DNA of 64,000 nucleotides, from contig DASSOH010000024.1 of the NCBI GenBank assembly GCA_035700865.1, positions 18,201-82,200 on the forward strand. The letters are read 5' to 3'. A program made the translations under genes and the position numbers. This stretch comes from Candidatus Limnocylindria bacterium (lineage in GTDB: Bacteria > Chloroflexota > Limnocylindria > QHBO01). Below, in pieces: positions 22,362 to 23,394 of the stretch. The notes below the pieces were generated by a model. It did no database searches. It was not told where the DNA came from and worked only from the letters and a program-made list of their open reading frames with translations. Numbering within the stretch: position 1 is the first letter of the stretch; each line of letters starts with the position of its first letter.

Positions 22362-22808
22362 ATGCGCCTGGTGGTCCAGCGCGTGACCCGGGCGTCGGTG
22401 TCCGCCGACGGCGAGCTGCTGGGACAGATCGAGCGCGGCGCGGTGGTGCTGGCCGGGATCGGTCGTGAGGACACGGTCGAGGTGGTCGACCAGGTGGCCG
22501 AGAAGCTGCTCGGCCTGCGCTACTTCGAGGACGACGAGGGTCGGACGAACCGATCCGTCACCGACGTCGAAGGTTCGCTGCTGGTGGTCAGCCAGTTCAC
22601 GCTCTACGCCGACGTGCGCCGCGGGCGGCGCCCCGGCTTCACGGATGCCGCGTTGCCTGACCAGGCGGTCCCGCTGCTCGATCGGTTCGTGGAGCGGTTG
22701 CGCGCGTCGGGCGTCGAGGTAAAGACCGGGCGATTCGGTGCCTCGATGGCCGTGGACCTGGTGAACGACGGCCCGTTCACGCTGGTGCTCGATTCCGACC
22801 ACCGCTGA
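22362..22808 (+). CDS. dtd: D-aminoacyl-tRNA deacylase
   Basis: MRLVVQRV...SQFTLYAD...GPFT consensus. 148 aa. Confidence 0.92.
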   Translation: MRLVVQRVTRASVSADGELLGQIERGAVVLAGIGREDTVEVVDQVAEKLLGLRYFEDDEGRTNRSVTDVEGSLLVVSQFTLYADVRRGRRPGFTDAALPDQAVPLLDRFVERLRASGVEVKTGRFGASMAVDLVNDGPFTLVLDSDHR

Positions 22809-22908
22809 CGGTGCCTCGCCCGCGTCTTCGGTGGCGGTTGTCATCGGTCTGTCGTGGCGACGCCAGGCGGCCTCGAATCGACGTCGACCGGTGGGGAAGC
22901 GCAGTAGC

Positions 22909-23033
22909 GTCGCCAGGACAGACGGCTGACGACGAGGAGCGGCCTGACCTCGTCTACGGTCGCCAGGACAGACGGCTGACGACAGGGAACGGCGCCACAG
23001 CGCGCAGTGTCGCCAGGACAGACGGCTGACGAC
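22909..23033. repeat. three identical 25-nt direct repeats (GTCGCCAGGACAGACGGCTGACGAC) separated by two 25-nt spacers
   Basis: Exact copies at 22909-22933, 22959-22983 and 23009-23033. A degenerate inverted copy lies at about 22841-22862 (gtcatcggtctgtcgtggcgac). Located in the dtd/rpmB convergent intergenic region. Confidence 0.85.
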
Positions 23034-23070
23034 GACGGAACGAACCGCCACCCTTCGGCGGACATGCGAA

Positions 23071-23094
23071 CGCCCGCGTCGGACGACGCGGGCG
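23071..23094. terminator. hairpin shared by convergent dtd and rpmB
   Basis: cgcccgcgtc-ggac-gacgcgggcg perfect 10-bp stem, 25 nt 3' of the rpmB stop. Confidence 0.4.
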
Positions 23095-23118
23095 CATCGG
23101 TTCAGGCGAGGGGGAAGG

Positions 23119-23310
23119 TCAGACCTTCTGCGCGGTGCGGCGGCAGCGGCTGCAGGCGCTGACCTTCGCAACCTTGCCGTCACGGGTGACGGTCATCGGC
23201 TGGAGGTTGGGCAGCCATCGGCGCAGCGCGCGCTTGCGGTTCATCCCGACGGACTGGGGATTCCAGCCGGTGATCGGGCGCTTGCCGCAGATGTCGCAGA
23301 CGCGAGCCAT
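23119..23310 (-). CDS. rpmB: 50S ribosomal protein L28
   Basis: MARVCDICGKRPITGWN...RRWLPNLQ matches L28. 63 aa. It is the 3' end of the long antisense ORF 23119..25341. Confidence 0.9.
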   Translation of the reverse strand: MARVCDICGKRPITGWNPQSVGMNRKRALRRWLPNLQPMTVTRDGKVAKVSACSRCRRTAQKV

Positions 23311-23394
23311 GGTCGAACGGGTCTCCAATCGCATGAAAAACCCGGCGCTCACCGCGCCGGAGCGACGCCGATGGTAGCACGCTAGGATCGGGCC

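Follow-up and report, generated by a model that had tools for sequence, protein, structure and literature searches.

The spacer between dtd and rpmB, two convergent genes on a 64-kb stretch of DNA from Candidatus Limnocylindria (hereafter the window), is 310 nt long, and most of it is occupied by a block of short repeats (positions 22830-23065). This block probably belongs, as one cluster, to a family of short non-coding repeats that is low in copy number, specific to its lineage and dispersed in the genomes of uncultured soil bacteria of Candidatus Limnocylindria; its core is predicted to be recognised by a trans-acting factor. The label that would suit it best is that of a dispersed repeat cluster resembling the repetitive extragenic palindromes (REPs) and bacterial interspersed mosaic elements (BIMEs), and also the mycobacterial interspersed repetitive units (MIRUs); we do not claim it as a proven REP. 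As far as literature searches show, the family is undescribed for the uncultured class Limnocylindria, of which we know of no cultured representatives. It is unusual in that a head-to-head pair is combined with units reiterated head to tail and regularly spaced, and in its strongly conserved core.

The upstream open reading frame (ORF), dtd (22362-22808, + strand; PF02580), encodes a D-aminoacyl-tRNA deacylase, the name carried by its homologues in Ca. Limnocylindria, and rpmB (23119-23310, − strand; PF00830), likewise read from its ORF, encodes ribosomal protein L28. Between them the 25-nt sequence GTCGCCAGGACAGACGGCTGACGAC occurs in three exact copies on the + strand, at 22909-22933, 22959-22983 and 23009-23033, giving the period of 50 nt that an earlier note on this DNA had reported. 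No fourth copy is present in the window, even at three mismatches, and none arose in 100 dinucleotide-preserving shuffles. Tandem Repeats Finder describes the block by a period of 50, 2.7 copies and a score of 168. The copies are the cores of three direct units. Two 25-nt linkers (22934-22958 and 22984-23008) separate them, a 5' tag (22904-22908, GTAG then C), defined in the alignment of 16 direct units described below, precedes the first, and a tail (23034-23065) follows the third.

Upstream lies a degenerate unit in inverted orientation (GTTGTCATCGGTCTGTCGTGGCGACGC, 22837-22863, − strand; nhmmer E=9e-6), which the earlier note had also seen. It is 27 nt long and 85% complementary to the repeat, stands 43 nt upstream of the first direct copy and faces direct unit 1 head to head; the spacer between them, 22864-22903, is not conserved in comparisons with the relative L032 and with other loci. 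A perfect outer inverted repeat of 10 nt, formed by 22830-22839 (GGTGGCGGTT) and by 23043-23052 within the tail (AACCGCCACC), lengthens the pairing between the inverted copy and the third direct unit, and its arms are paired in the minimum-free-energy folds of both strands. There is no second cluster inside the window, and the core sub-motifs are not over-represented in a test of the kind applied to DNA uptake sequences (DUS) and uptake signal sequences (USS).

The unit is not confined to the dtd-rpmB site. Scans of sequence collections, which recovered exact pattern matches only, located it on two other contigs of the Limnocylindria metagenome-assembled genome (MAG) SMAG_U2445 when one genome per species was searched (loci L005 and L007, alongside single chance hits), and at two further loci in metagenome contigs (L009, and L010, which is the same as L008). 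Related genomes of several species have the same unit at four or more intergenic loci that are unrelated to one another. L005 is flanked by a gene for a helix-turn-helix (HTH) protein and a mutase-like gene, L007 by a clpP-like gene and a gene for a methyltransferase with an MGMT domain, the mutase-like and clpP-like assignments being putative and made by eye; the genes are convergent in both cases. L010 lies between unidirectional genes, the downstream one weakly ImuB-like (IMS_C, below Pfam's cut-off). No neighbouring gene is common to the loci, and neither a transposase nor a cas gene was found beside any fetched copy. A type III toxin-antitoxin system, in which ToxI-like tandem RNA repeats directly precede a toxin gene on the same strand, was considered and rejected, the next gene here being the convergent rpmB and the neighbours differing at every locus.

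With an nhmmer profile every locus shows the same layout, in which a single degenerate inverted unit is followed, after 43-100 nt, by one to five direct units whose period is 50 nt wherever there are two to five of them. The left unit ends in TGACAAC and the right units in TGACGAC, consistently at several loci, and at four of five loci the direct units follow a gene and are oriented in its sense. Across loci, the sequence enclosed by the units shows no conservation, the segment 22864-22908 of the window being unrelated in sequence at the other family loci. Linkers are near-identical within the L005 array and within the L007 array, which points to recent duplication. SMAG_U2445, a fragmented MAG of a relative, holds two clusters and one solo unit. 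The listed HTH-protein ORF upstream of the L005 cluster is overlapped at its 3' end by the inverted unit (1939-1967), and some units of the family may extend into coding sequence. Directly upstream of the L007 array (650-1055) is an unrelated 203-nt tandem duplication with two copies that are 83% identical, suggesting that this intergenic region gathers several kinds of repeat.

Alignment of 16 direct units from six loci defines a family unit of about 50 bp, made up of a conserved core of about 25-35 nt and a freely evolving linker. The units are nearly invariant over most of the 25 nt, with four variable positions, and their consensus is [C/G]TA[G/A/C]-N-GTCGCCAG-GACnGACnn-nTGACGAC. The TA at positions −4/−3 is nearly invariant, and the tag [C/G]TA[G/A/C], placed two or three nt ahead of the core, is found in most units; it takes the form GTAG in two of the 16, and 10 others have CTAG, CTAA, CTAC or ATAA. 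The core is entered through CGTC in 10/16 units. Direct unit 1 of the window reads GTCGCCAG-GACAGACGG-CTGACGAC, an imperfect palindrome of the form GTCGCCAG-N9-CTGACGAC with 8-nt arms and one C.A mismatch (7/8 complementary). The centre (GGAC.GAC) is conserved as well as the arms.

We then compared the dtd-rpmB site itself among strains and relatives. An identical Dtd is encoded on five other contigs, four of which span the spacer; each of these spacers is 310 nt long and has three units, with scattered point differences only (the first base of unit 3, for example, is G or A among same-species strains). Seven other lineages were reached through Dtd homologues and through contigs with identical L28. 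Spacers of 55-59 nt contain the conserved hairpin described below and nothing else, and represent the empty site. Those of 115 nt, the commonest form, found in L016 among others, have a solo degenerate inverted unit and no direct units, and this is also the form at dtd-rpmB in SMAG_U2445, the carrier of the L005 and L007 arrays. Spacers of 258 nt (L022) and 525 nt (L024) consist of lower-GC sequence unrelated to the repeat family. The diverged lineage L032 has a 313-nt spacer with the orthologous inverted unit and three direct units. Across all forms the spacer ranges from 55 to 525 nt despite a conserved gene order (RlmN-type radical SAM gene, rpe, DUF4015 gene, dtd, rpmB, recG).

The array is absent at this site in close relatives, and the variation seen is all-or-none between alleles. 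L029, a carrier of the solo unit, has a Dtd 98% identical to that of L032, yet in the region 495-860 of L032 the last dtd codons and the whole spacer are of the window type, with flanks identical to L029 on either side. This suggests that the array and solo forms act as alleles exchanged, in the manner of a cassette, by homologous recombination. We found no copy-number polymorphism at the site, with three units in the window, in the spanning same-species contigs and in L032.

Presence or absence of the block at one site among relatives, in a family that is dispersed, could also point to a non-autonomous transposon like a miniature inverted-repeat transposable element (MITE). Here the inverted and the outermost direct unit would be terminal inverted repeats, and the inner units subterminal transposase sites, as in ends of the Tn7, Mu or IS21 type. 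The opposite orientation of the units at the two ends is in line with this, as are the additional pairing of 22830-22839 with 23043-23052 and the different endings of left and right units. However, inspection by eye revealed no target-site duplication at any of five loci, and no related transposase was found beside any copy. (A 10-nt direct repeat, CGCCCGCGTC, at 22817-22826 and 23072-23081 was rejected as such a duplication because its right copy keeps the original upstream context of the empty sites.) The direct units vary in number from 0 to 5 and the near-identical linkers point to local duplication rather than to a fixed end structure, the interior is not conserved between loci, and the solo inverted unit persists alone in many lineages. 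Conservation of the cores while the rest decays would be unexpected for a dead insertion, and the difference between L032 and L029 resembles an allele swap by homologous recombination rather than a clean insertion. We consider a MITE-like origin quite unlikely.

The array arose by tandem duplication of a 50-nt unit whose linkers subsequently decayed, as indicated by the residual likeness of linkers in L032, the window and L009. Linkers 1 and 2 of L032 are about 69% alike in a hand alignment. Linker comparisons in the window give 12/25, 9/25 and 9/25 identities, against about 7-7.5/25 by chance; the value of 12/25, which is that of linkers 1 and 2, is also reached in L009 (P about 0.03-0.04 each).

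Constraint was assessed by comparing the window with the orthologous L032 array segment by segment, using Fisher's exact test. The three cores differ at 6/75 positions (8%; 1, 3 and 2 of the 25 in units 1, 2 and 3) and the inverted unit at 3/27 (11%). The linkers differ at 15/50 positions (30%) and by one indel, linker 1 at 28% plus the indel and linker 2 at 32%; the loop, left flank and tail differ at 40-43% (40% for the segment 22864-22908, 42% for the tail after unit 3), and all non-core positions together at 58/154. The cores are significantly different from the linkers (p=0.003) and from all non-core sequence (p=8e-7), being conserved in place four to five times better than their surroundings. 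These figures, with the likeness of the L032 linkers, bear out the earlier note's view of a diverging 50-bp tandem duplication with one half under constraint. In dtd, 31.5% of third codon positions differ between the same two lineages and 7-9% of first and second positions, a comparison by which the core is held in place about as tightly as non-synonymous coding sites. It could be kept so either by selection or by homogenisation against other copies of the family.

A purely local minisatellite (variable number tandem repeat), generated by slippage at one locus and belonging to no family and serving no function, would have an intergenic 50-bp period of this kind, and the near-identical units of other arrays would suit it. 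It is refuted by the dispersal of the unit over several unrelated loci in several species and by the very different rates at which cores and linkers evolve; five contigs of this species and the diverged L032, moreover, all have three units. We regard such an origin as highly improbable.

The layout had been likened in the earlier note to a tiny CRISPR array. As an orphan mini-CRISPR the block would have 25-nt repeats, 25-nt spacers, a degenerate terminal repeat and a distant cas locus. Identical short repeats do alternate regularly with dissimilar segments of fixed length, and a 25-nt repeat is inside the size range of 24-48 bp quoted for CRISPRs (Di Nocera et al. 2013, PMC3733652). Beyond this, CRISPR features are absent. 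PADLOC found no core Cas protein among 45 ORFs of the window (no Cas1/2/5/6/7/9/12; generic helicase, ATPase and DEDDh exonuclease matches only), in agreement with the earlier observation that no cas genes lie nearby. The same repeat recurs as a multi-locus family at four or more other loci, in arrays of 1-5 units, with an inverted copy at each, and the degenerate copy is inverted, unlike the terminal repeats of CRISPRs. The 'spacers' are near-identical within the L005 and L007 arrays, and the likeness of about 69% between L032 linkers 1 and 2 marks them as diverged duplicates, not acquired DNA. Two diverged lineages also share orthologous linkers and the same number of units, and close relatives lack the array. 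Neither the core pattern nor the two 'spacers' tested matched a viral contig, and the whole block matched no phage or plasmid. The CRISPR reading is effectively refuted and we give it next to no weight; this false lead shows that a REP-like tandem unit with a fast-evolving linker can mimic a mini-array.

Conservation of the core over a divergence of about 31% at dtd third positions and about 40% in the flanks of the array keeps another reading open, that of an array of cis-elements selected by the host. The core would then be a host-factor site and not selfish DNA, and the phased copies, set beside terminators, would form a platform maintained by the host, acting either on DNA as a roadblock to transcription or replication or as an insulator for converging polymerases or, at the RNA level, as a decoy with repeated CAGGAC motifs in the 3' untranslated region (UTR) of dtd. 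CAGGAC(A/G) resembles the GGA motifs bound by CsrA-type proteins. The strict 50-nt period at every locus is in favour of this possibility, as are conservation over the whole 25 nt, centre included, constraint on the cores comparable to that on non-synonymous positions, and the sense orientation of direct units downstream of a gene in 4/5 loci. Dimers typically bind sites with pseudo-palindromic arms such as GTCGYCAG/CTGACGAC, and a C-to-T change in L032 units 2 and 3 makes these arms perfectly complementary. On the other hand, close relatives lack the array at this site, where it is evidently dispensable, and no candidate binding protein or csrA gene was identified. One L032 unit is without GGA (CAGAAC), nothing at the site points to a replication terminus or origin, and the conservation could stem from homogenisation against family copies. 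We retain a host-selected array as a tentative possibility.

The cluster is better accommodated, in our view, among REP/BIME-like repeats. Tagged REPs are palindromic units of 20-40 bp that fold into stem-loops (stem 5-13 bp, loop 2-20 nt) and bear an unpaired GTAG or CGTC tag at one end; they form head-to-head dimers able to fold into larger hairpins, prefer intergenic sites between convergent or unidirectional genes, and in clusters are reiterated in tandem with flanking DNA (PMC3733652). In the Chloroflexi, GTAG-23 of Thermomicrobium roseum is clustered at few loci (PMC3733652). The Limnocylindria units are likewise non-coding and about 25-35 nt long, with inverted arms that fit the REP size limits (8-nt arms, 9-nt centre) and, at one end, a tag-like [C/G]TA[G/A/C] then CGTC. 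They too form a head-to-head pair and are reiterated in tandem with flanking DNA, at sites downstream of coding regions and between convergent (window, L005, L007) or unidirectional (L010) genes. The family is also lineage-specific, and its cluster composition varies between relatives. For the earlier note, finding the 25-mer dispersed as a generic REP element would tell against a dedicated array; the dispersal seen here does so, although the family is low in copy number and not abundant genome-wide.

Several observations weigh against the REP/BIME-like reading. The Limnocylindria palindrome is weak: single-unit hairpins are no more stable than those of shuffled sequences (z from −1.4 to +0.2) and different variants are predicted to fold differently, so that the short bulged hairpin drawn in the earlier note does not stand as a conserved structure. 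The centre of the unit is conserved like the arms, unlike a REP loop, and the tag is mostly CTAG, CTAA or CTAC, not GTAG. Head-to-tail arrays, which dominate here, are rare in described REP families (PMC3733652). Comparison of identities within and between loci gave no sign that inverted and direct units co-evolve, a slight within-locus excess being seen in L009 only, and a selected long hairpin is for this reason unsupported. We identified neither a transposase nor a binding protein that goes with the family and saw no target-site duplication. Finally, REPs number tens to hundreds of copies per genome (PMC3733652), and the copy number here is apparently low, with one cluster in 64 kb and a handful of loci in very large collections, although those scans took exact matches only and MAGs assemble repeats poorly. 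The same-species contig L014 stops 83 nt beyond dtd, just after the inverted unit and short of the first direct unit (2604-2700); an end inside the element suggests that the cluster may break short-read assemblies, and that copy numbers in MAGs may be underestimated.

Linker hairpins have folding energies no better than those of shuffled linkers. For the 310-nt spacer as a whole, the folds of the + and − strands have z=−1.9 and z=−3.5, respectively. Judged by its sequence, the unit looks more like a site whose primary sequence is read by a protein, which may be a dimer, than like a hairpin of RNA or DNA with a purely structural role.

Other repeat systems resemble the family in part. REPINs, which are REP doublets mobilised by RAYT transposases (IS200/IS605-type Y1 enzymes whose genes are flanked by the repeats), are similar in that copies persist and are conserved within the lineage. 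Unlike REPINs, the Limnocylindria pair has unequal arms, of which the inverted one is always degenerate, shows no co-variation and is followed by extra direct units; no RAYT gene is known for these genomes, and abundance is seemingly far below that of typical REPIN populations. MIRUs, reportedly described by Supply et al. in 1997 and 2000, are conserved over the whole unit, contain short ORFs that overlap adjacent genes, and differ between strains in copy number. The present units share with them a length of about 50 bp, inside the 40-100 bp of MIRU-like dispersed minisatellites, head-to-tail orientation and few-copy arrays at multiple intergenic loci, including sites inside operons (L010), but are conserved over half the unit only, always have an inverted partner, and are constant in copy number in the strains seen. 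BOX elements of Streptococcus pneumoniae contain a tandem middle module of about 45 bp (boxB) in variable copies between partly complementary end modules, are intergenic and can fold. They are likewise modular dispersed elements with a tandemly repeated middle module; they have no sequence relation to the Limnocylindria family, in which the repeated module is itself complementary to the left end.

If the cluster is REP/BIME-like, as we favour, its formation would have involved a degenerate inverted unit set head to head against direct unit 1, in the manner of REP dimers or REPINs, and then head-to-tail reiteration of the 50-bp unit by local tandem duplication, to three copies in the window. 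The core would be retained because a putative trans-acting factor recognises its sequence, and is probably a recognition site for a protein; candidates for the factor would be a REP-type nuclease or transposase, or a host DNA- or RNA-binding protein. Since the block lies between the dtd stop codon and a terminator hairpin, it would be transcribed with dtd into the dtd 3' UTR, where inverted and direct units could form a long hairpin. The likely effect, as proposed for REP/BIME clusters, would be to modulate, between the convergent genes, termination, insulation or the stability of mRNA 3' ends. The family offers a handle for finding a sequence-specific DNA- or RNA-binding protein or a REP-type nuclease in Limnocylindria.

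The terminator hairpin in question is GC-rich (23071-23094), with a 10-bp stem, a GGAC loop and no T-run. It stands outside the repeat family and is presumably a bidirectional terminator common to dtd and rpmB. The hairpin block is found in every relative examined. The window and L016, with only 83-84% identity between their Dtd proteins, agree at 100% of positions in a 42-nt block around the hairpin (23066-23107), and the terminator region 23066-23118 has 3/53 differences (6%) from L032. Rfam gave no hit at gathering score in the whole window, and chance-level hits only (E above 4) in 22700-23200. When the translations of the array ORFs from both strands were concatenated and compared with a collection of 5.8 billion proteins, 303 candidates shared words with them and none had E<=10; the lack of homologues disfavours a coding function of the array.

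In public records Dtd is annotated as belonging to Candidatus Limnocylindria (Chloroflexota). The gene content of the window is otherwise of a housekeeping nature, including ribosomal proteins, SRP54-type GTPases, SMC, RecG and a class I tRNA synthetase, among others. Of the 46 ORFs called heuristically, 44 are on the + strand, one of which (23135-23377) is probably spurious, lying over rpmB, which the heuristic missed; rpmB itself is among the very few − strand genes of the window. Along the whole window GC skew stays weakly positive and never switches. This, and the presence of + strand genes on both sides, led us to reject a replication terminus or origin at the repeat site. In the divergent rpmB-recG spacer, about 25 nt upstream of the rpmB start, a further, terminator-like hairpin followed by TTTTT is found on the − strand (23341-23361); it has no Rfam match and could be an L28 leader or attenuator.

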